Shown piece by piece: positions 1-9,956 of a DNA stretch of 10,001 nucleotides (its first letter is position 1; every line of letters starts with the position of its first letter). The stretch covers positions 1 through 10,001 of the IMG/VR virus record IMGVR_UViG_3300029517_000070, one strand, 5' to 3'. The stretch is from a virus. Its lineage: Duplodnaviria > Heunggongvirae > Uroviricota > Caudoviricetes. The notes under the pieces were generated by a model. The model ran no database searches and had not been told where the DNA came from. It saw nothing but the letters and a program-made list of their open reading frames with translations. The translations under genes and the position numbers were made by a program.

Positions 1-2
1 TT

Positions 3-77
3 GTCCTCTTAGTTAAATGGATATAACGAGCCCCTCCTAAGGGCTAATTGCAGGTTCGATTCCTGCAGGGGACACCA
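3..77 (+). tRNA. argW: tRNA-Arg, anticodon CCT (reads AGG), complete 75-nt gene ending in CCA
   Basis: Cloverleaf can be folded by eye: acceptor stem GTCCTCT (3-9) pairs with AGGGGAC (66-72), discriminator A, CCA at 75-77; anticodon loop CTCCTAA gives anticodon CCT; T-loop GGTTCGATTCC present. Matches the E. coli argW sequence as I remember it. Confidence 0.9.
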
Positions 78-172
78 TTTATCAGTTCGCTACCATCCGT
101 ACCAGTCCGCAAAATCCCCTGAATATCAAGCCTTCCGTAGATTCACAGTTCGTCATGGTTCGCGTAAGATCG

Positions 173-202
173 TTGACAGCCGCACTCCATGACGGGTAAA
201 AA
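173..202 (+). promoter_or_regulatory. Putative sigma70 promoter for the integrase (TTGACA at 173-178, AT-rich -10-like TAAAAA about 18 bp downstream)
   Basis: Consensus -35 hexamer seen directly; the -10 is weak. Position is inference only. Confidence 0.3.
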
Positions 203-238
203 GTGGATAAAATAATTTTACCCACCGGATTTTTACCC

Positions 239-1393
239 ATGCTCACCGTTAAGCAGATTGAAGCAGCAAAGCCGAAAGAAAAACCATACCGCCTACTCGA
301 TGGTAATGGCCTGTACCTTTATGTCCCTGTATCAGGGAAAAAGGTATGGCAGCTTCGCTACAAGATTGACGGTAAGGAGAAAATCCTGACCGTCGGAAAA
401 TATCCACTTATGACTTTGCAGGAGGCAAGGGATAAGGCATGGACTGCGAGGAAAGACATCTCGGTTGGTATCGATCCGGTAAAGGCGAAAAAGGCTTCGT
501 CTAACAACAATTCCTTTAGTGCGATTTACAAGGAATGGTACGAGCACAAGAAGCAAGTCTGGTCAGTAGGCTATGCAACTGAACTTGCAAAAATGTTTGA
601 TGACGACATTTTACCTATCATCGGCGGCATTGAAATTCAGGATATTGAGCCGATGCAACTGCTGGAAGTAATCCGCAGATTTGAAGATCGCGGTGCAATG
701 GAGCGAGCAAATAAAGCCCGCAGAAGATGCGGCGAGGTTTTCCGTTACGCTATTGTCACTGGTAGGGCTAAATATAACCCGGCACCTGACCTTGCTGACG
801 CCATGAAGGGATACCGCAAGAAGAACTTCCCGTTTCTTCCTGCAGACCAGATCTCGGCATTCAACAAAGCACTTGCAACATTTTCAGGAAGTATCGTATC
901 GCTCATTGCGACCAAAGTTTTACGCTACACAGCCCTAAGAACAAAAGAGCTTCGTTCCATGCTATGGAAGAACGTCGATTTTGAAAACAGGATTATCACC
1001 ATCGACGCCAGTGTGATGAAGGGACGCAAAATTCATGTTGTCCCGATGTCAGACCAGGTGGTTGAACTTCTCACTACACTAAGCTCAATCACTAAACCAG
1101 TATCAGAGTTTGTTTTTTCCGGGCGCAACGATAAGAAGAAGCCAATCTGCGAGAACGCGGTATTGCTTGTGATCAAACAAATTGGCTATGAAGGGCTGGA
1201 AAGCGGTCACGGATTCAGGCATGAATTCAGCACGATTATGAACGAGCACGAATGGCCTGCTGACGCTATTGAAGTGCAACTGGCACATGCCAACGGCGGA
1301 TCTGTGCGCGGGATTTACAACCATGCTCAGTATCTCGATAAGCGCAGAGAAATGATGCAGTGGTGGGCTGACTGGCTTGATGAGAAGGCGTGA
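239..1393 (+). CDS. intS: Tyrosine recombinase / P4-family prophage integrase (IntS-like)
   Basis: ORF-track protein (203..1393) from residue 13 onward (MLTVKQIEAAKPKEKPYRLLDGNGLYLYVP...) matches E. coli CPS-53 IntS as I recall it. C-terminal catalytic region contains R...HxxR...Y-type motifs (HGFRHEF, GIYNHAQY). The GTG at 203 lies inside the putative promoter, so ATG at 239 is preferred; the start is still uncertain. Confidence 0.85.
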   Translation: MLTVKQIEAAKPKEKPYRLLDGNGLYLYVPVSGKKVWQLRYKIDGKEKILTVGKYPLMTLQEARDKAWTARKDISVGIDPVKAKKASSNNNSFSAIYKEWYEHKKQVWSVGYATELAKMFDDDILPIIGGIEIQDIEPMQLLEVIRRFEDRGAMERANKARRRCGEVFRYAIVTGRAKYNPAPDLADAMKGYRKKNFPFLPADQISAFNKALATFSGSIVSLIATKVLRYTALRTKELRSMLWKNVDFENRIITIDASVMKGRKIHVVPMSDQVVELLTTLSSITKPVSEFVFSGRNDKKKPICENAVLLVIKQIGYEGLESGHGFRHEFSTIMNEHEWPADAIEVQLAHANGGSVRGIYNHAQYLDKRREMMQWWADWLDEKA

Positions 1394-1443
1394 TGCTTTC
1401 CATCTTTCCATTCGGATTCCTCCTACCAGATTTACCTAGAGAG

Positions 1444-1452
1444 TGATATAGT
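1444..1452 (+). promoter_or_regulatory. Possible extended -10 promoter element (TGATATAGT) upstream of the acyltransferase
   Basis: TGnTATAGT motif seen 30 bp upstream of the ATG at 1483; no good -35 at correct spacing. Inference. Confidence 0.3.
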
Positions 1453-1482
1453 TAATCTTTTAAAAAGTTACATGGGCTTTGC

Positions 1483-3318
1483 ATGTCTTCTAAATTTAGG
1501 AATGATATTAATGGGCTAAGGGCTCTAGCGGTCGCAGCTGTTATTATATATCACTTTAATAGCTCTTATATGTCAAGCGGATTTGCAGGAGTGGATGTTT
1601 TTTTTGTTATCTCTGGATACCTGATGACATCCATAATAGTTAATAAATTCAATGATGGTAATTTCAAGCTTTTTGATTTCTACCTATCAAGAGCAAAAAG
1701 AATCATACCATCATTAATAATAGTCTGCTTTGCTCTGTTGATTTTTGGTTTTTTATTAATAGAACCTGGTACTTATCAGCTAATAGGCAAGCATTCGGCA
1801 AGCTCTCTTACATTCATATCAAACTTTACCTATCTATTTGAATCTGGATATTTCGACCAATCATCCAAAGAAAAGTTTTTGCTGCACACTTGGTCACTAT
1901 CTGTTGAGTGGCAGTTCTACTTGATTTATCCATTTATAATAATATCAATTTCTAAGCTGTTTGGCATAACAAGGCTGCGAGCGGCGCTAGCGTCTCTATC
2001 GGTGATTGGATTTATAATTTCTTTAATTATATCAAAAGAAGATATATCTTTATCTTACTATATGTTTTTTAGTAGAGCATGGGAGATGATAGTAGGTGGA
2101 GTTATTTTCTTGCTTCCATCAATAATGACGCAGACAAAGAGACTGACTTTAGAAATAATAGGGTGCATTGGTATAATATTATCATTTTTTGTTTTTACTG
2201 AACAAACGTTATGGCCGGGGACTCCAACTCTAATGCCTGTAATGTTCACTGCATTGGTTATATATGCTAATAATGAAAAATCAATTCTATCTGCAAGGCC
2301 AATTCAATTAATCGGTAAGATATCATATTCTATATACTTGGTGCATTGGGTAATATTAGTATCATTAAAAAAACTGTATATAGACTTTGGGTTTGCTGCA
2401 TACCTGATATCAACATTAATGCTATCTTTTGCATTATATCACTTTGTTGAAAAAAGGCGTAGCTTTGGGAAAATATGGGTTTATTTGTATGTTTTATGTT
2501 TTCTCATTTCGCTGGCCGTCTCCTTGAATGGAGTCAGATCGCGAACAAGTGGGTCAGATGATTACAGAATGAGCCTTCAGGAGTTCAGAGACAAGTACGA
2601 AGGAAGTGATGGAGTAAAGGATAGCCTCAAACCTATCTTCTTCAACTCTAACGAAGATGACTTTGAATATATATTAATTGGAAGTAGCCATGCAAAGCAC
2701 TATTACTCATATATAAAATCAAAAGGTTTGAAAGTGGTGTCGCTTGCGCTTGATGGGTGTAACTCAACAAAAAACAGGTATACCAACTACCGTCCGGAAT
2801 CATGCGCCCCTCGCTATGATCAAGTGGTAAAATTCATCAATGGCCATCCTGGCAAAAAGGTAGTTTGGGCTACTTTGTGGACTTGGGTTGGGATCCCTAG
2901 AGATAGCTCCAAAAATAATAATGAGAGTACTCTAGATGTGATAAATGAAGAAGTAACTGCATTTATAGGTGACATTAATAAATCAAATAGTGACATTTAT
3001 CTTATAGGTGACGTTCCGGGCACTAAGAAACTAACATTTGAATGCATGGCTAAAAATTCGCTGCCTTTGAATAGATATTTCAATTTGGGCGGATGCAGTG
3101 ACAAGCAAAAGTATGAGGACGATGGTGTTGATGCAACACTATCATCCATAGCTAGAAAATATGATAACGTTCACTTTATAGGGGCTGCAAACTCCTTGTG
3201 TTCATCAGGTGAATGCATGTTGATATCTGAAGGTAAACCAATTTATACAGATTATGGTCACCTTTCAAAATATGGTGCAAATATAGTCGGAAAGTATATA
3301 TTCAGTAAAGTTAATTAA
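1483..3318 (+). CDS. Integral-membrane acyltransferase (acyltransferase-3 family) fused to a C-terminal SGNH-like domain; probable O-antigen O-acetyltransferase (Oac/OafA-like serotype-conversion moron)
   Basis: 611 aa. N-terminal about 370 aa are very hydrophobic with the AT3-type start (RNDINGLRALAVAAVIIYHF) and multiple predicted TM segments; the C-terminal about 240 aa are soluble. The gene is visibly much more AT-rich than its neighbours, and sits between int and tailspike as oac does in Sf6 and gtrABC do in CPS-53/P22. Confidence 0.85.
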   Translation: MSSKFRNDINGLRALAVAAVIIYHFNSSYMSSGFAGVDVFFVISGYLMTSIIVNKFNDGNFKLFDFYLSRAKRIIPSLIIVCFALLIFGFLLIEPGTYQLIGKHSASSLTFISNFTYLFESGYFDQSSKEKFLLHTWSLSVEWQFYLIYPFIIISISKLFGITRLRAALASLSVIGFIISLIISKEDISLSYYMFFSRAWEMIVGGVIFLLPSIMTQTKRLTLEIIGCIGIILSFFVFTEQTLWPGTPTLMPVMFTALVIYANNEKSILSARPIQLIGKISYSIYLVHWVILVSLKKLYIDFGFAAYLISTLMLSFALYHFVEKRRSFGKIWVYLYVLCFLISLAVSLNGVRSRTSGSDDYRMSLQEFRDKYEGSDGVKDSLKPIFFNSNEDDFEYILIGSSHAKHYYSYIKSKGLKVVSLALDGCNSTKNRYTNYRPESCAPRYDQVVKFINGHPGKKVVWATLWTWVGIPRDSSKNNNESTLDVINEEVTAFIGDINKSNSDIYLIGDVPGTKKLTFECMAKNSLPLNRYFNLGGCSDKQKYEDDGVDATLSSIARKYDNVHFIGAANSLCSSGECMLISEGKPIYTDYGHLSKYGANIVGKYIFSKVN

Positions 3319-3322
3319 ACTA

Positions 3323-3351
3323 AGGCCCCTCAATCCTGAGGGGCTTTTTTT
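3323..3351. terminator. Rho-independent terminator shared by the convergent acyltransferase and tailspike genes
   Basis: Perfect 8-bp GC-rich stem GCCCCTCA (3325-3332) / TGAGGGGC (3337-3344), 4-nt loop, then a run of seven T (3345-3351) on the + strand. The tailspike stop codon overlaps the T tract. Confidence 0.8.
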
Positions 3352-5182
3352 ACGCGGTTAATCTCCAGCGCTTATCATAGTAATGCATTAATCCTTGTGA
3401 TGTTATTTTCATATGCACGATTGCTTGAGAAAAAGTGGCGGCAGCAAAACTTACCCTAAGAAATGTTTGTGAGCCGTTATTGTATTTAGATGTGGTAATG
3501 CCGGTTAGGTTTTTACTTCCAGCAATCATATTTGACCAAACATTACTTGAAGCTAAAGTGGCTTGATCTTTTGCTGATACGCTTACCAATATAACTCCAC
3601 CGGTCTCACCAGTTCCGCCCAATCCATTCTGATTAATTGGCATAATCTTTAACTCTGCTGCGATAAAAACCCCCCCCGTATATGAAGCTTCTTCACCAAT
3701 CGTTGAAATAAGAATATCAATATTTCTTCCATATGGTACCAAAACCGTCGCATCTTCAGTTAATACCTGAGTGTATGTGGCGTTTTTAGCTTGGTGTTTA
3801 GCGGAAAGAACCACACCATCAGAACCAGTTCGAAAGCCGATTCCAGTATGTTCCCCGTAGTATTTACCGTAATAATTTATTCCTCTGACGTCAAATTCTG
3901 AAATAGCACTTCCGGTTGTGTTTTTTACGAAAATGAACTTATCACCGAAGGTGAAACCTCGGCACTGATATTGATTCGTTGGATCGGCAATGTTTTTAAG
4001 AAAGGAAATTCCCTTATAGGCTTTAACGTACCCACTTTCGAAACGAAAGTTCACAGGACCATTTTGTTCATTTGCTGGTAATTCAACAAAATGAGTAACC
4101 GTGGCTCCGCTAGGGTCCTGAATCCAGCAGGAAATGTTCTCAACGGTTGCAACTGATTGGCCGTCCTCTTCATTGTAATCTGCAAAATCAAGAGCGTGCG
4201 TACCATTTATCCCTTCGATACCCATACCTTTGATAGAAAGAGAGCGGAATCCATAGAACTTATGAGGTAAAGAACAACCATCTGCAGCAATATTATTTGC
4301 GGCAACGTACATTAATGGCCCCGGAGCCTTTACAGGTTCATAGGTTTCTCTATCAATCACAGCCCCCCAAAGATAACCAACACCACATTGCGAAGACCAA
4401 ATTGCAGAGACATCAGTACTTGTTCCCCATATTGCAAATCCGTATGTGCAATCATACATAAAAATATTTTGTATGACGCTGACAAATGGACACGATGGGA
4501 GCGCAAATTTATAATGGTAGAAGTCTATATTAGTTAGCTTCCAGTTCTTTCCGCCACCATACGTGGTGCTAGGACCACTTAGCAAAAGTGGACACCCTGT
4601 ATATTCAGAGTCAGTGTTTCTGAAACCAATATTTTCAATATGTAAATTATGACCCCATGAGGACATGTAAAAACCGCCATTTCCTGACGTATAAATCAAA
4701 CTCTGCCTCGGGTTATCACCCTTAATATTTAAGGTGATGCCTTCCCATCTAAACTGGCTAATGTCAATTTGAGTGTTACCAATATATATAGGCTGGTCTA
4801 TAAAAATAGGAAGTTTAGTTAGATAAGCTTTATTAAGTGCTAATCCATCATTTGTTACACCTGTTAAATCGACGCCACCCATGCTTGGCGCTTTTGGGTA
4901 AGGCGTTCCCTGAATAGTACTTCCATCAATATAAGGAGCATCCATCCACGCACCAAACATACGAGGAGTAACATATCCTTTCCCCTGCAGATCTCGTTTC
5001 CAGCGTTTACCACCCGCAGTGACAATGACCATGCCGTTATCATCTGCAGAAGTCGAATCTGTGAAATCGGCCACAAACAGACCACCACCAGTATCACCTG
5101 ATACTGTCGGCTTCATGCCTGTAGTGTGGAAGTCGACGAAAATCTTTTGCTGATCTCGCTCAGGCTCAATTGTCCTTAACAT
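3350..5182 (-). CDS. Tailspike / receptor-binding depolymerase-like protein (predicted beta-helix), lacking a P22-type N-terminal head-binding domain
   Basis: 610 aa, Gly/Asn/Thr/Ser-rich beta-type sequence with a pectate-lyase-like N-cap (GYVTPRMFGAW). Sits in the gene 9 position after ejection genes and convergent with the O-antigen acyltransferase. No Shine-Dalgarno before the ATG at 5182. No similarity to the conserved P22/Sf6/HK620 tailspike N-terminus as I recall it. Confidence 0.65.
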   Translation of the reverse strand: MLRTIEPERDQQKIFVDFHTTGMKPTVSGDTGGGLFVADFTDSTSADDNGMVIVTAGGKRWKRDLQGKGYVTPRMFGAWMDAPYIDGSTIQGTPYPKAPSMGGVDLTGVTNDGLALNKAYLTKLPIFIDQPIYIGNTQIDISQFRWEGITLNIKGDNPRQSLIYTSGNGGFYMSSWGHNLHIENIGFRNTDSEYTGCPLLLSGPSTTYGGGKNWKLTNIDFYHYKFALPSCPFVSVIQNIFMYDCTYGFAIWGTSTDVSAIWSSQCGVGYLWGAVIDRETYEPVKAPGPLMYVAANNIAADGCSLPHKFYGFRSLSIKGMGIEGINGTHALDFADYNEEDGQSVATVENISCWIQDPSGATVTHFVELPANEQNGPVNFRFESGYVKAYKGISFLKNIADPTNQYQCRGFTFGDKFIFVKNTTGSAISEFDVRGINYYGKYYGEHTGIGFRTGSDGVVLSAKHQAKNATYTQVLTEDATVLVPYGRNIDILISTIGEEASYTGGVFIAAELKIMPINQNGLGGTGETGGVILVSVSAKDQATLASSNVWSNMIAGSKNLTGITTSKYNNGSQTFLRVSFAAATFSQAIVHMKITSQGLMHYYDKRWRLTA

Positions 5183-5210
5183 TGCTATATCAGGGCATGT
5201 CCCGATGTAT

Positions 5211-5462
5211 TTAAGACCGTCTTACCAGACCACGACCAGCCTGTTCTGCAATTTGCCCTGCACTTTGACCACCAGTGAGCCAATCGCCAGCTTGTTGCAT
5301 CAATGATGGTTCTTCACGTGCTGGTTCATTGCTATCCTGGCTGACAGTTTGTTGCTGAACAGACTGTCCAGCAAAATACTCATCAATGGCAGATCCAATA
5401 TCTTCCGTGCTCGTACCATCAGGGAAGGTAAATGTCTTACCGTTTGCAGTTACTTTCATCAT
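5211..5462 (-). CDS. Hypothetical small protein (83 aa) at the position where a gp16-type ejection protein is expected; possibly an N-terminal remnant
   Basis: ORF with GGTGGA Shine-Dalgarno just upstream of tandem ATGs (GTGGAATGATGAAAG); the C-terminal half is low-complexity and Q/A/G/E-rich. Functional assignment is inference. Confidence 0.4.
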
Positions 5463-5572
5463 TCCACCGTAAATTGAATGCCTGATTTTGAGGTATATGA
5501 TCCAACCTGATTCCGTGGTTCTCCTGAAGGTGTCGAATCTTGCGCTGGTGCTGCGTCAGTATTCATTGACAT
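5459..5572 (-). CDS. Possible 37-codon ORF ([37 protein letters not shown]) overlapping the gp20-like stop and coupled by ATGA overlap to the 83-aa ORF
   Basis: Hand translation of the minus strand; below the ORF-track length cutoff. May be a gene remnant rather than a real gene. Confidence 0.2.
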
Positions 5573-6873
5573 ATACCGCTTAACGGCACTCCCAATGATT
5601 CACCTTTTTTAACATCCAACCCCAATATCTGACCGCCATTACGCGATTGTCCAGGGTTGCCATTCGCGCTCATCCACTCGGCTTTAAACTCATTAAACTG
5701 CGCGTTTCGTCGCTCAAGGTTTGCCATTGCATCAAGCCATCTTGCGACCGTCTCAGGGTTATCCATGTCAGTTGGTGCACCCTGACGAACGATCTCAACG
5801 TCTTTATCCGTTGCGGGGCCGGGAGGTAGGAATTTAAGAACCTGACTGTTAACAAGGGCATTTTGGCGAATGCGCAAATCACGCAATGTCGTATCGCTTC
5901 CGGTAAGTTTTGCGAACATGTTCTGTGCGTTACCGAACAAACCTGTCGTTGGTTTTTCTGCTCTGAACTGTTGAGCAAGCGCACTCATAGAATTGGCTGA
6001 GTTTGATGATGCTGTGGCATTGTTTACAGCCGTCTCGATGCCTTTTTCCATGTTTACTGACAGCTTAGGTGCTTCGCTAATCAACTGCTGAGCCTTTTCC
6101 TGCGCTTGCTGCATCTTAAACCCGAACTCTTGCTGATCCAGAGCCAAGCGTTGTGCTGCGATATTGTGCCCAGTCATTGCTGACTGATAGGAAAGGTTTT
6201 GCCCTCTCGCCTGAAGTGCTTCACCAGCCTGATTGCTGCGGATTGTCTCTGCCAGCCTGCCTCGGTCAATTTCACGACCAGCCATCTTATCCTGAACAGC
6301 AAACGCCTTTTCTGGCCCAAGCGCACCGAGAGACATAGTAGTCAGCATGTGTGATAGCTGCTCTGGATTCTGGATACCTGTCTGAATCATCCAGTCAGCA
6401 TTAGCACCAACGCGATTTAACCTGTCCTTGTTGTCAGTAATGAATTTACTGTAGGCTTCCGGTCCCTGAGAAAGAGCGACGTTAGCCCTCATGGCTAAAT
6501 CGCCCATATCGTTGCGTTGCTGCTCATTAAGACCGGAAAACGCCTGTTGTGCCTGTGCAACAAACGCTGGATTTTCCTGGGCAAACTTAAATAGTCCCGA
6601 TGGATCACCAGAAGCCCATGCATCAGCGTGAACCTTATTGAACGCACTAATCGCTTTCTGTTGCTGTTCCTGCTTATAAATATCAGCAACTCCAGCCAGA
6701 CCACGTAACGCGGTCAGACCAACGTTATTTGCACCTGAGCGAGCCAGTTCATTGTTTTCGCGGATCAGACCAAGCGTTGCGTTAATGTCGCTTGCCTTTG
6801 GCGCATTCTCGTTTTGCGCACCAATGCCAGCCAGAAAACCACCAGAATTAATACCCTGTTGCCACGTAGCCAT
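5563..6873 (-). CDS. Phage ejection / internal virion protein, P22 gp20-like
   Basis: 436 aa, Ala/Gln-rich and predicted alpha-helical; AAGGGG Shine-Dalgarno 7 nt upstream of the ATG; located directly downstream of the gp7-like gene in the same operon. Assignment by order and composition, recalled not searched. Confidence 0.7.
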
Positions 6874-6883
6874 TGATTACCCC

Positions 6884-7576
6884 TTAAAACAACGAGCCAA
6901 GCAATCCGATACCAGCACCAATGCCAGCGCCCCAAGGCGTTGATGTTCCCAAAATGCTGGCAAGACCTGCACCGGCAATCGCACCAGACGTGCCACCGCT
7001 AATTGCAGTCTGAAGACTTGATGGTTTATTGGCATTAGCAGCGGCAAGAGCTGCGCTTTGCTGTGCAATGCTGCTCATGTTGTTGGCGTACGTCTGCCCG
7101 GCGTTTGCCTGACCTTGCAGTGCACCAAGCCCAACGTTTGCCAGATTGTTGTAATTGCTCATCTGATTTGATAACCAAGACTGACCGAGTGTCGGCGCGA
7201 TCGTAGCCAGTTGATTGCTTGTGGCTGTCGAACCAAGTCCACCCGTCGCCTCCGCAGCAGCAAGACTCTGGTAACGAGCCTGACCTGCAAGGTCTTTATA
7301 CTGCTGAGAGTTGTAATACTGATTAAGTGCCTGCCCCTGACCTTCTAAACTGGAAAGGTTTTGAAGCTGGTTAACATACTGCTCCGCAAGAGGCGTGAAC
7401 GGAGCAAGGTTTTTCATGATCGTCTGCCACTGCTGATTTTGCAGGTCTGCGGCATACTTCTGAGCTTCTGCTGCATACTTTGCGCTTTTATCAGAGCTGC
7501 CACCTTTCCCGCCTTTTTCAGGGCAATAAGGTTCCTCGCCGCGCAGTTTTCTGCCCAGCTTAAATGCATATAACAT
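6884..7576 (-). CDS. Phage ejection protein, P22 gp7-like
   Basis: 230 aa; N-terminus MLYAFKLGRKLRGEEPYCPEKGGKGG and a Gly/Ala-rich hydrophobic C-terminus are typical of P22-type gp7 as I recall; GGGAGA Shine-Dalgarno 5 nt upstream. Confidence 0.7.
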   Translation of the reverse strand: MLYAFKLGRKLRGEEPYCPEKGGKGGSSDKSAKYAAEAQKYAADLQNQQWQTIMKNLAPFTPLAEQYVNQLQNLSSLEGQGQALNQYYNSQQYKDLAGQARYQSLAAAEATGGLGSTATSNQLATIAPTLGQSWLSNQMSNYNNLANVGLGALQGQANAGQTYANNMSSIAQQSAALAAANANKPSSLQTAISGGTSGAIAGAGLASILGTSTPWGAGIGAGIGLLGSLF

Positions 7577-7578
7577 AG

Positions 7579-9385
<1,807 letters not shown>

Positions 9386-9546: not shown

Positions 9547-9577
9547 GGCTCTTAAAAATTAAGCCCTGAAGAAGGGC
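9547..9577 (+). promoter_or_regulatory. nutL antitermination site: boxA-like GGCTCTTAA followed by boxB hairpin GCCCTGAAGAAGGGC (9563-9577)
   Basis: boxB is identical to lambda nutL boxB as recalled (5-bp stem, GAAGA loop); boxA differs from lambda CGCTCTTA at the first base. Confidence 0.85.
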
Positions 9578-9845
9578 AGCATTCAAAGCAGAAGGCTTTG
9601 GGGTGTGGTGAAGCCAGCTAGTCACTGGCAAGTGCTTACCTACTGTTGAGCGGTGAAGCGCTCCCAACGCTAGCAATAGCGTGGACGAGATGGGGAGCCG
9701 CGGGCGATAAGGCCGCCATAACGCGCACGTTGTCGCATGGAAAAATCGCTGGGGTGCCGGTTATACCCCTCCGAATGAGACTCAACAAGCTGGAGCTAGA
9801 CTACCAGCCACCACACCACCAAAGCTAACTGACAGGAGAATCCAG

Positions 9846-9956
9846 ATGGATGCACAAGCACGCCGCCGCGAACGTCGCGCAGAGAAACAGGCTCAATGGA
9901 AAGCAGCAAATCCCCTGTTGGTTGGGGTATCCAGCGACGATTTTAGCGCCCAATAA
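9846..9956 (+). pseudogene. N: N antiterminator remnant: 36-codon ORF retaining the arginine-rich boxB-binding motif but lacking the NusA- and RNAP-binding regions
   Basis: AGGAG Shine-Dalgarno 7 nt upstream; MDAQARRRERRAEKQAQWKAANPLLVGVS is near-identical to lambda N residues 1-29 (107 aa in lambda), then diverges to SDDFSAQ-stop at about 9930. Confidence 0.7.

Follow-up and report, generated by a model that had tools for sequence, protein, structure and literature searches.

A probable deletion-derived pseudogene of a P22-like tailspike in a defective Escherichia coli prophage at argW

Analysis of a 10,001-nt stretch of viral DNA (the window) indicates that its 610-aa tailspike-like open reading frame (ORF; Table 1) is very probably a pseudogene fragment of a Lederbergvirus (P22-like) tailspike gene, left by a deletion of ~5.67 kb in a defective prophage. 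The ORF, which starts with ATG and encodes the N-terminus MLRTIEPERDQQ, is the last ~4/5 (3′ side) of a normal P22-type tailspike gene, and a pseudogene assignment is supported by the presence of a colinear intact allele elsewhere and of a defined deletion junction in this copy. The element that carries it is what remains, over ~9.9 kb, of a P22-like, imm434 E. coli prophage at tRNA-argW, and it cannot excise.

Intact alleles and the deletion junction

Intact E. coli Lederbergvirus-type alleles (P0001; WP_250267663.1; P0002 = WP_248699835.1), found in P22-like prophages at argW, encode 744-aa proteins with both PF09008 and PF27114 and are 99-100% identical to the ORF product over all 610 residues. 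They also share its C-terminus and its neighbors (the 611-aa AT3-SGNH acyltransferase, IntS and argW). The intact alleles differ from the window copy in possessing residues 1-134, which comprise the PF09008 head-binding domain and a linker, in using their own start with a GGAG Shine-Dalgarno (SD), and in being preceded by an ant/immI region that the window lacks. The ATG of the ORF corresponds to codon 135 (Met135) of these alleles. The intact allele L016 differs from truncated copies at 0-3 positions in 1870 nt and truncated copies differ among themselves at 0-5 nt. The dN/dS of 0.14 between truncated and intact alleles is uninformative, mostly reflecting divergence that predates the deletion.

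Alignment to an intact prophage (L006) revealed colinearity on either side of a 5.67 kb gap, with window positions 1..5226 aligning to L006 10359..15585 at 98.3% and positions 5222..5503 to L006 4407..4688. The gap comprises the remainder of gp16, two ORFs whose function is not known, repressors resembling Mnt and Arc, the antirepressor Ant and ~120 codons from the start of the tailspike gene. An earlier, sequence-only reading of this DNA had proposed that the 5′ end was deleted together with a sieA/immI region; the upstream alignment bears out the loss of the tailspike 5′ end and of the immI-type region, but sieA is not identifiable in the deleted interval.

A three-way alignment of the junction demonstrates that a T from the gp16 side makes an in-frame TAA (5224-5222), located 14 codons upstream of the ATG. 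The 13 codons in between (GAC GGT CTT AAA TAC ATC GGG ACA TGC CCT GAT ATA GCA) contain no ATG, GTG or TTG, in agreement with the earlier observation that the upstream frame is open to a TAA without an alternative start. Since this TAA is a product of the junction, Met135, the first downstream ATG, is no start site but a methionine from the interior of the protein. Very probably, one illegitimate deletion at the 2 nt of exact microhomology joined gene 16 codon ~80 to tailspike codon ~121, removed the remainder of gene 16, the immI-type genes (mnt-like, arc-like, ant and the unknown ORFs) and the virion-binding domain, and itself created the stop codon closing the tailspike frame.

The exact 610-aa protein is present in RefSeq (WP_336475503.1, 'phage tail protein') and is called in NCBI E. 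coli assemblies, two of which were examined and have it behind a different junction (type B, see below). Megablast of the gene against phage records returned a 99-nt match only, this allele was found in no complete E. coli genome, and a conserved 282-nt segment occurs in only three complete E. coli genomes, annotated as tailspike or head-binding-domain proteins. Scans of genome contigs with the junction 43-mer and the tailspike 37-mer gave zero matches, and a homologue search with the first 108 residues produced one uninformative match.

Domains, fold and expression signals

A PF09008 head-binding domain was detected in the ORF neither by a local Pfam scan, nor by precomputed Pfam, nor with the PHROG 33504 profile. 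The local scan, run with a copy that does not include the PF27114 model, gave no match at all, and the precomputed assignment for the identical protein is PF27114 (Phage_tail_beta) only, a family also matched by homologues of the ORF. The match of the ORF to the PHROG 33504 profile starts only at position 135, that of the intact protein at position 1. These results uphold the earlier claim that the conserved head-binding domain is lacking and, given its presence in the 744-aa alleles, identify the ORF as a fragment of a P22-like tailspike member, not a complete one.

The AlphaFold2 model of the ORF product (a monomer; mean pLDDT 81) yielded Foldseek matches in the PDB with probability 1.0 and E-values down to 1.6e-13. 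The best matches (AM24, CBA120 TSP2, Fri1 gp49, K2-2, Depo32, WceF and Sf6) are all parallel β-helix tailspike depolymerases, and the top 36 comprise, besides the tailspike-like WceF, only tailspikes, phage tail fibres and depolymerases. The β-helix tailspike character assigned from sequence is thus corroborated by structure comparison, with Sf6 among the matches. The fold class of the receptor-binding part is that of the P22, Sf6 and HK620 tailspikes, but the module is not related to them in sequence (a PDB sequence search gave one marginal match), and AM24, CBA120 TSP2 and Klebsiella depolymerases rank above Sf6, HK620 and P22. As modeled, the ORF product is a receptor-binding β-helix module (PF27114) minus the head-binding domain, and the conserved positions of this module are all kept from L2/R3 onward.

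The gene is located where a gp9-family member is expected, downstream of gp7-gp20-gp16 and convergent with a conversion gene and int. The P22 gp9, HK620 and Sf6 tailspike genes occupy the same genome position, after gp7/gp20/gp16 and before an O-antigen modification gene and int, and the head-binding domain of the intact allele is 57-91% identical to those of IME10, HK620, Sf101 and SEN22. Unlike P22 gp9, HK620 and Sf6, the window copy is without this anchor.

In the 20 nt scanned upstream of the ORF, the best anti-SD duplex reaches -3.0 kcal/mol, compared with -5.6 at the intact tailspike start in relatives and -7.4 to -9.3 for gp7, gp20, cI and cro. The earlier statement that there is no SD is hence better worded as a weak match in place of a strong site. 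Two apparently intact genes of the window are equally weak (acyltransferase, -2.4; intS, -3.3/-3.8), so that the SD alone decides nothing. No promoter-like site of at least 10/12 was found between gp20 and the ORF, the sole candidate (9/12) lying inside gp20. By inspection, the N-terminus MLRTIEPERDQQKIFVDFHTTG is hydrophilic and holds no twin-arginine or hydrophobic signal. The fragment is probably not expressed, or only incidentally and at a low level.

The prophage remnant and alternative readings of the ORF

The att core TTGCAGGTTCGATTCC occurs once only in the window, and att-right and part of dsdC have been deleted. A second large deletion took out replication, lysis and head genes, and none of the genes for head, portal, terminase, lysis or replication is left in the remnant. 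Essential functions other than the tailspike are therefore lost as well (gp20 frameshifted, gp14, gp16 and N truncated, a single att core), and loss of the head, lysis, replication, N and att-right functions leaves the element able neither to form a particle nor to excise. We take cro to be of the phage 434 type, from 434 Cro and operator sequences. As a result of the two large deletions, the ORF now lies downstream of the 434 PR promoter and no convincing terminator intervenes, so transcription after repressor loss is conceivable.

Table 1. Annotated features of the prophage remnant in the window
Feature	Position	Strand	Remarks
tRNA-Arg(CCU), argW	3..77	plus	att core at 48-63
IntS-type prophage integrase	203..1393	plus	
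AT3-SGNH O-antigen acetyltransferase	1483..3318	plus	intact, 611 aa, 35% G+C; lysogenic-conversion gene
G+C-rich hairpin, terminator-like	3325..3344	none	between the convergent tailspike and acyltransferase genes; T-run on plus strand
5′-truncated tailspike ORF	3350..5182	minus	610 aa, codons 135-744 of the intact 744-aa protein
Tailspike codons 122-134	5183..5221	minus	share the frame of the ORF and precede its only start codon
gp16′ fragment	5211..5462	minus	~80 initial codons of a P22 gp16-type ejection protein, followed by 3 foreign codons and stop
Deletion junction GG(T)AA	5222..5226	minus	gp16 codon ~80 joined to tailspike codon ~121; 2 nt exact microhomology
gp20 ejection protein	5563..6873	minus	frameshifted near 5593, where a G run has lost 1 nt; 436 aa, 468-471 aa in relatives
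gp7 ejection protein	6884..7576	minus	full length
gp14 (DUF2824)	7579..7969	minus	first 22 codons missing; right edge of the second large deletion
cro, presumably 434-type	8024..8248	minus	last codon fused to gp14-side DNA; homology ends at 8034
PR-like promoter	8304-8276	minus	
434-type cI repressor	8352..8984	plus	HTH and S24 peptidase, 210 aa, apparently intact

KplE1/CPS-53 and Kapi1, two argW-integrated P22-like E. coli (pro)phages, have the same attachment site and an IntS-type integrase, and KplE1 is, like the window prophage, a defective remnant. As in the window, O-antigen-modifying genes are located between int and the tailspike (PMC8787464). The window prophage differs from them in its AT3-SGNH acetyltransferase, which stands in place of gtr or an unknown conversion gene, in its tailspike module, in its imm434 immunity and in the loss at its right end. 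The O-antigen acetyltransferase gene is likely the reason why this prophage end is kept. On the sequence evidence, the ORF is most likely a recent, silent pseudogene carried beside that retained gene, and its persistence probably reflects both the very recent date of the deletion and the adjoining acetyltransferase.

Counting against a pseudogene, the 610-codon frame is still open and the positions of the receptor-binding module are kept, and the product might have been exapted as a free depolymerase, a soluble, particle-independent trimer that binds or cleaves O-antigen. Such a protein could be made by read-through from PR (cro - 'gp14 - gp7 - gp20 - gp16′ - 'tailspike) on SOS inactivation of cI, followed by weak translational re-initiation 28 nt past the gp16′ stop. 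This reading gains from a complete module with a confident β-helix model, from the location of PR and an intact LexA-like cI upstream along the same axis of transcription, and from truncations at the same point in other lineages, of which type D (WP_157921314.1) is in frame with a 33-codon leader. It gains as well from the P22 tailspike shortened by its N-terminal domain, which is reported to fold to a native structure and to keep oligosaccharide binding and endorhamnosidase activity (PMC2989905). The domain content of that protein is essentially the one encoded by the ORF and, as the module is kept, the ORF product would probably be active if made. The shortened P22 tailspike, however, is engineered and over-expressed, whereas the ORF owes its truncation to an accident of genomic deletion, has neither promoter nor SD, and begins only 14 residues into the conserved module. 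WceF of Pantoea stewartii, a host-encoded, tailspike-like glycanase among the Foldseek matches, shows that a protein of this fold, encoded in a bacterial chromosome and lacking a virion anchor, can be put to use by the host. WceF has a Tat signal peptide and is located in an EPS operon (PMC7949094); the ORF, in contrast, has neither an export signal nor expression signals of its own, its N-terminus being hydrophilic and its SD weak. No lysis genes are left to release the protein, gp20 of the same putative transcript is already frameshifted and, with truncated and intact alleles so nearly identical, an open frame is expected by default. Together, these considerations make a free depolymerase unlikely.

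The sequence-only reading had alternatively suggested a distinct attachment architecture. In such a natural architecture, the tailspike would bind its particle through a different N-terminus or be recruited by an adaptor, and MLRTIEPERDQQ would be the true N-terminus. The same receptor-binding module is indeed found behind other virion anchors (PF18668, T7-tail type) in lytic phages, among them Kagunavirus NRG857CP3, Kayfunavirus TH16/TH20, Kuttervirus fGh-Ecl02 and the vB_EcoD/KpnD Opt-79 group, whose proteins are 46-52% identical over the entire module and begin it with the same DGxKxIGxCxDIxxLRTIEP motif as the window tailspike. Module swapping at this point is thus real, and modular exchange of receptor-binding proteins between phages has been described (PMC10408124). 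Yet all of these proteins have an anchor, and their module begins at least 14 residues earlier (DGxKxIG...). In the window, by contrast, codons 122-134 are still present in frame upstream of the ATG, severed by the junction-made TAA, the upstream gp16 codon 80 is out of frame, and the element is without virion genes. Instead of matching the ORF in length and N-terminus, full-length homologues are 134 residues longer, which leaves this architecture with next to no probability. That gp16 and tailspike reads were joined into a chimera during sequencing or assembly, for which the scant microhomology (just 2 nt exact) and the mosaic nature of the phage DNA could be invoked, is similarly far-fetched: at least 12 contigs, obtained from independent samples and projects with different assemblers (metaSPAdes, MEGAHIT, Logan), share the identical junction, one 50 kb scaffold is 99.93% identical to the entire window, and the 610-aa protein is found in NCBI E. 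coli assemblies, albeit behind the type B junction in the two examined, so an assembly artefact is excluded.

A shared break point in truncated tailspike genes and its implications

Truncated tailspike genes from four independent rearrangements, with different left flanks and three receptor-binding types, at two chromosomal loci, all join the tailspike within the same 2-3 nt, between GGGG and AAGACGG. The left flanks correspond to gp16 codon 80, to DNA adjoining abc2, to a position 27 nt past another gp16 type, and to early-left DNA at the thrW/proA locus, and the receptor-binding side is always the one kept. The break point, between GGGG and AAGACGGTCTTAAATAC, falls at codon 121, within the cross-genus DGxKxIGxCPDIxxLRTIEP motif. 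Comparison of these junctions suggests that the shared end point is a recurrent break point at the boundary between anchor and receptor-binding module. That this boundary is a site-specific break or recombination point is a tentative proposition, to which we give somewhat less than even credence. Its cause might be a nuclease, from a co-infecting phage or from the host, that nicks the DNA or cuts both strands at a specific sequence, one end then being protected, and the same mechanism could underlie both the exchange of receptor-binding modules across phage genera and the recurrent truncation of prophages.

On the tailspike side, the junctions are marked by the 25-mer ACGGTCTTAAATACATCGGGACATG, which the left flanks precede; the type D left flank includes 11 nt, GGGACGGCAAT, that are candidate filler DNA.

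Several specific origins of the shared break point were considered, and the first four below are rejected. A hairpin or cruciform finds no support, as the DNA there folds no better than shuffled sequences (z = -0.09); no transposon-like inverted-repeat partner of AAGACGGTCTTAAATAC is present in the window; and an IntS pseudo-att site is discounted because the att core is unrelated. Derivation of one junction type from another by simple deletion does not account for the types either, since type A keeps cI to gp16′ without the early-left genes and type B shows the reverse. Self-targeting by a type I-E CRISPR system, with the AAG of the junction as PAM, appears unlikely because PAM and protospacer are kept in the deletion alleles and no spacer-like match was seen. 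Restriction sites of type IIS (GAAGAC) and type III (AGACC) overlap the break point, but their known cut distances would not fit.

The finding itself carries little weight, the ORF being very probably an ordinary pseudogene. It illustrates how a deletion remnant can pass for a normal gene in gene calling and in RefSeq (WP_336475503.1), and why an 'orphan' receptor-binding protein of an E. coli genome ought to be compared with intact alleles before a new architecture is called. It also adds one more stage to the known decay of P22-like prophages at argW, one at which the virus is gone but the O-antigen acetyltransferase remains. If confirmed, the recurrent break point would matter more, for it would provide a testable nucleotide position for the cut-and-paste of receptor-binding modules between phages, a process so far inferred from conserved motifs only.

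Origin of the truncated tailspike gene

The 610-aa tailspike-like ORF is a tailspike pseudogene that has recently lost its 5' end and lies in a decayed P22-like prophage at argW. The sequence-only reading had described both the ORF and its N-terminus correctly and had proposed, as its first alternative, that the 5' end was deleted together with the neighbouring region. A search of a 5.8-billion-protein collection returned E. coli proteins of 744 aa, named 'phage tailspike protein', with the PF09008 (Head_binding) and PF27114 domains; across the full 610 residues they match the ORF product at 100% and 99% identity. Met1 of the ORF corresponds to Met135 of these proteins, and the 13 codons upstream of it to residues 122-134. 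The head-binding domain is absent from the ORF, as had been claimed: an intact relative matches the PHROG 33504 profile from position 1 and the ORF from position 135 only, and PF27114 is the only domain in a public copy of the identical protein. The frame upstream of the ATG is likewise closed by a TAA (5224-5222) with no alternative start, the 13 intervening codons containing no ATG, GTG or TTG.

In L006, a seemingly complete prophage in a different sample, the order coat ... gp7 - gp20 - gp16 (711 aa) is followed by two ORFs of unknown function, Mnt-like and Arc-like genes, an 89-aa ORF, Ant and the 744-aa tailspike, and then by the same 611-aa acyltransferase - IntS - argW side. Window 1-5226 corresponds to L006 10359-15585 (98.3% identity) and window 5222-5503 to L006 4407-4688, so that approximately 5.67 kb are missing from the window. 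The intact 744-aa alleles and the colinearity of L006 around this gap bear out the proposed deletion; none of the genes lost with it was recognisable as a sieA homologue. The junction reads gp16 ...GGTCTGGT|AAGACGGTCTT... tailspike; its parental sequences, GGTAA|ACATACC (gp16) and GGGGAAG|ACGG (tailspike), share an exact microhomology of 2 nt, and the T from gp16 makes the TAA.

The junction is not an artefact. At least 12 contigs, drawn from independent metagenomes and sequencing runs, encode the 83-aa junction peptide, and a 50 kb scaffold from human gut shows 99.93% identity over the whole window. RefSeq lists the exact 610-aa protein as WP_336475503.1 ('phage tail protein [Escherichia coli]'). 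Between one intact allele (L016) and the truncated copies there are 0-3 nt differences in 1870 nt, which indicates that the deletion is young and that an open frame is expected without selection. The dN/dS of 0.14 obtained for truncated copies against intact alleles at a greater distance mostly records divergence that predates the deletion. The pseudogene, although correctly observed, is ordinary and already in public databases. Such tailspike remnants are frequent in these protein clusters: fragments of 173 and 338-487 aa occur, some of them contig-edge partial gene calls.

The surrounding prophage remnant

Megablast against 5,426 complete E. coli genomes mapped the window to the argW-intS...dsdC locus, the site of P22-like prophages and of the KplE1/CPS-53 remnant, with the window's own arrangement found in 0 of the 5,426.

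Features of the prophage remnant in the window
Feature	Position	Strand	Remark
tRNA-Arg(CCU) (argW)	3-77
IntS-type integrase	203-1393	+
AT3-SGNH acyltransferase, 611 aa	1483-3318	+	PHROGs: O-antigen acetylase
Tailspike-like ORF, 610 aa	3350-5182	-
gp16 ejection protein, 83-aa N-terminal fragment	5211-5462	-
gp20	5563-6873	-
gp7	6884-7576	-
DUF2824/gp14 fragment	left of cro	-
Cro-type HTH gene	right of gp14 fragment	-
LexA-like HTH-S24 repressor, 210 aa	8352-8984	+	intact

Decay extends well beyond the tailspike. Loss of 1 nt in a G run of gp20 near 5593 (GGGG to GGG) has replaced its last ~35 codons, leaving 436 aa versus 468-471 aa; this frameshift is common to L023 and L024 and absent from L008, a comparison locus with the same gp16/tailspike deletion, and is therefore later than that deletion. 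gp14 lacks its first 22 codons. At a second deletion junction (7970-8034) the last cro codon is fused to gp14-side DNA, homology ending at 8034; the replication, Q-type late control, lysis, terminase, portal and coat genes are gone between cro and gp14, and gp7, gp20, the truncated gp16 fragment (gp16') and the tailspike fragment now lie directly downstream of PR. Three ACAAnnnnnnTTGT operators are located between the divergent cro and cI (8262-8330), and cro, cI and OR1-3 look to be of the phage 434 immunity type. Just downstream of cI, and overlapping its end, lies an ORF (8909-9385, +) assigned to PHROG 2651, of unknown function, in which an internal start gives an N-terminus resembling a signal peptide or a lipoprotein leader; the gene may be a moron, in the place usual for genes of the rex/sieB type. 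Farther right are a presumably boxB-like hairpin (GCCCTGAAGAAGGGC, 9564-9578), judged by lambda nutL, and what, judged by lambda N, looks like the opening ~28 codons of an N-type antiterminator (9847-9929), directly followed to 10001 by DNA from inside a truncated dsdC. Lost in this third deletion were the remainder of N, ral, torI, the second att core and a portion of dsdC. The 16-nt att core TTGCAGGTTCGATTCC, common to full prophages, occurs once only, inside argW (48-63), and the ~9.9 kb remnant can neither excise nor make particles.

The acyltransferase gene is intact and has 35% G+C versus 41-51% in its neighbours, and this O-antigen acetyltransferase is plausibly the cargo under selection at the argW end of the remnant. 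Gene calls in some relatives (L007, L019 and L020) give it 564 aa, not 611 aa.

Expression and probable lack of function of the fragment

The ORF is most likely non-functional. It lacks a start codon of its own: Met135 is an internal methionine, with a weak Shine-Dalgarno (SD) only, 28 nt after the gp16' stop. In front of the ATG, anti-SD pairing is weak at best (-3.0 kcal/mol, versus -5.6 at the intact gene start and -7.4 to -9.3 for gp7, gp20, cI and cro), but the criterion alone is soft, since the starts of the acyltransferase gene and intS are just as weak. From gp20 to the ORF no promoter-like site reaches at least 10/12, and the one scoring 9/12 is inside gp20. The sole good same-strand upstream promoter is the 434-type PR (TTGACA-17-GAAAAT, 8304-8276), which the intact cI should repress. 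In the lysogen-like state, we infer, the fragment is silent; SOS cleavage of cI would bring at most read-through transcription, followed by poor translation.

An AlphaFold2 model built from 23 homologues (mean pLDDT 81) matched parallel beta-helix tailspike depolymerases in the PDB, with probability 1.0 for the top 31 matches, in agreement with the beta-helix character proposed from sequence; the sole match of a sequence-only PDB search was 48 residues to the AM24 tailspike. If made, the product would probably fold: P22 tailspike without its N-terminal domain keeps its structure and activity (PMC2989905). Unlike WceF, a host enzyme with a Tat signal (PMC7949094), the ORF product carries no export signal, and no lysis genes for its release are left in the remnant.

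In its intact form the protein is a standard tailspike of Lederbergvirus, with an anchor 57-91% identical to those of IME10, HK620, Sf101 and SEN22. Its receptor-binding module also occurs in Kagunavirus, Kayfunavirus, Kuttervirus and the Opt-79 group, where it follows other anchors and is 46-52% identical. Kapi1, a characterised P22-like phage integrated at argW, has a tailspike whose only part in common with known phages is the head-binding domain (PMC8787464).

A candidate recurrent break point

The same 610-aa ORF is also found behind a second junction (type B), whose left flank comes from the early-left operon beside abc2 (parent ...CCCGGCAAG|CGGCAG...) and meets the tailspike at the AAG that the window's own junction (type A) also uses. 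Type A keeps cI to gp16' without the early-left genes and type B the reverse; given this reciprocal gene content, neither derives from the other by simple deletion. Their tailspike parts are 1 nt apart. The type B loci L017 and L018 contain, to the left of their tailspike fragment and near the dsdC side, a reverse transcriptase (RVT_1) beside a PRTase-CE-domain gene and a resolvase, a group that could be a retron-like defence cassette in the same decayed prophage.

Two further junctions share the position. In type C (metagenome contig L028) the flank lies 27 nt beyond the stop codon of a gp16 of the lytic-transglycosylase type (parent ...GTGCAAAA|ACCAAAT...), and the receptor-binding domain diverges after 290 nt. 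In type D (WP_157921314.1, 654 aa), located at proA/thrW, a 33-codon early-left leader is fused in frame at ...GAA|GAC GGT CTT... to another receptor-binding domain; unlike the window's copy, this ORF is continuous across the junction. On L033 (8001-9965, GCA_002518125.1) it has the leader MKKTTIEVIAIPDVTSSDKRKTSASPPLWDGNE and a TTG start, and is annotated in RefSeq as a 654-aa 'phage tail protein'.

Four left flanks (gp16 at codon ~80, abc2-side DNA, DNA 27 nt after the other gp16 type and early-left DNA at thrW/proA) thus meet the tailspike within 2-3 nt, at GGGG|AAGACGGTCTTAAATAC in codon 121 (window 5222-5226, L017-L022, L028, L033/L034), with three receptor-binding types, two chromosomal loci and microhomologies of 2-3 nt. 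Chance is very unlikely to have placed four events within 2-3 nt, the rough estimate being of the order of 1e-6, even though the retrieval could find end points only in roughly codons 90-134 (types B and D) or anywhere left of the probe (type C). A hairpin, a transposon-like inverted repeat and an IntS pseudo-att site were each ruled out as the cause. The break point sits in the motif DGxKxIGxCPDIxxLRTIEP, with which the module begins in several phage genera. At the boundary of anchor and receptor-binding module there is thus a candidate for a recurrent break point, not an established mechanism, and it is the only element worth following up.
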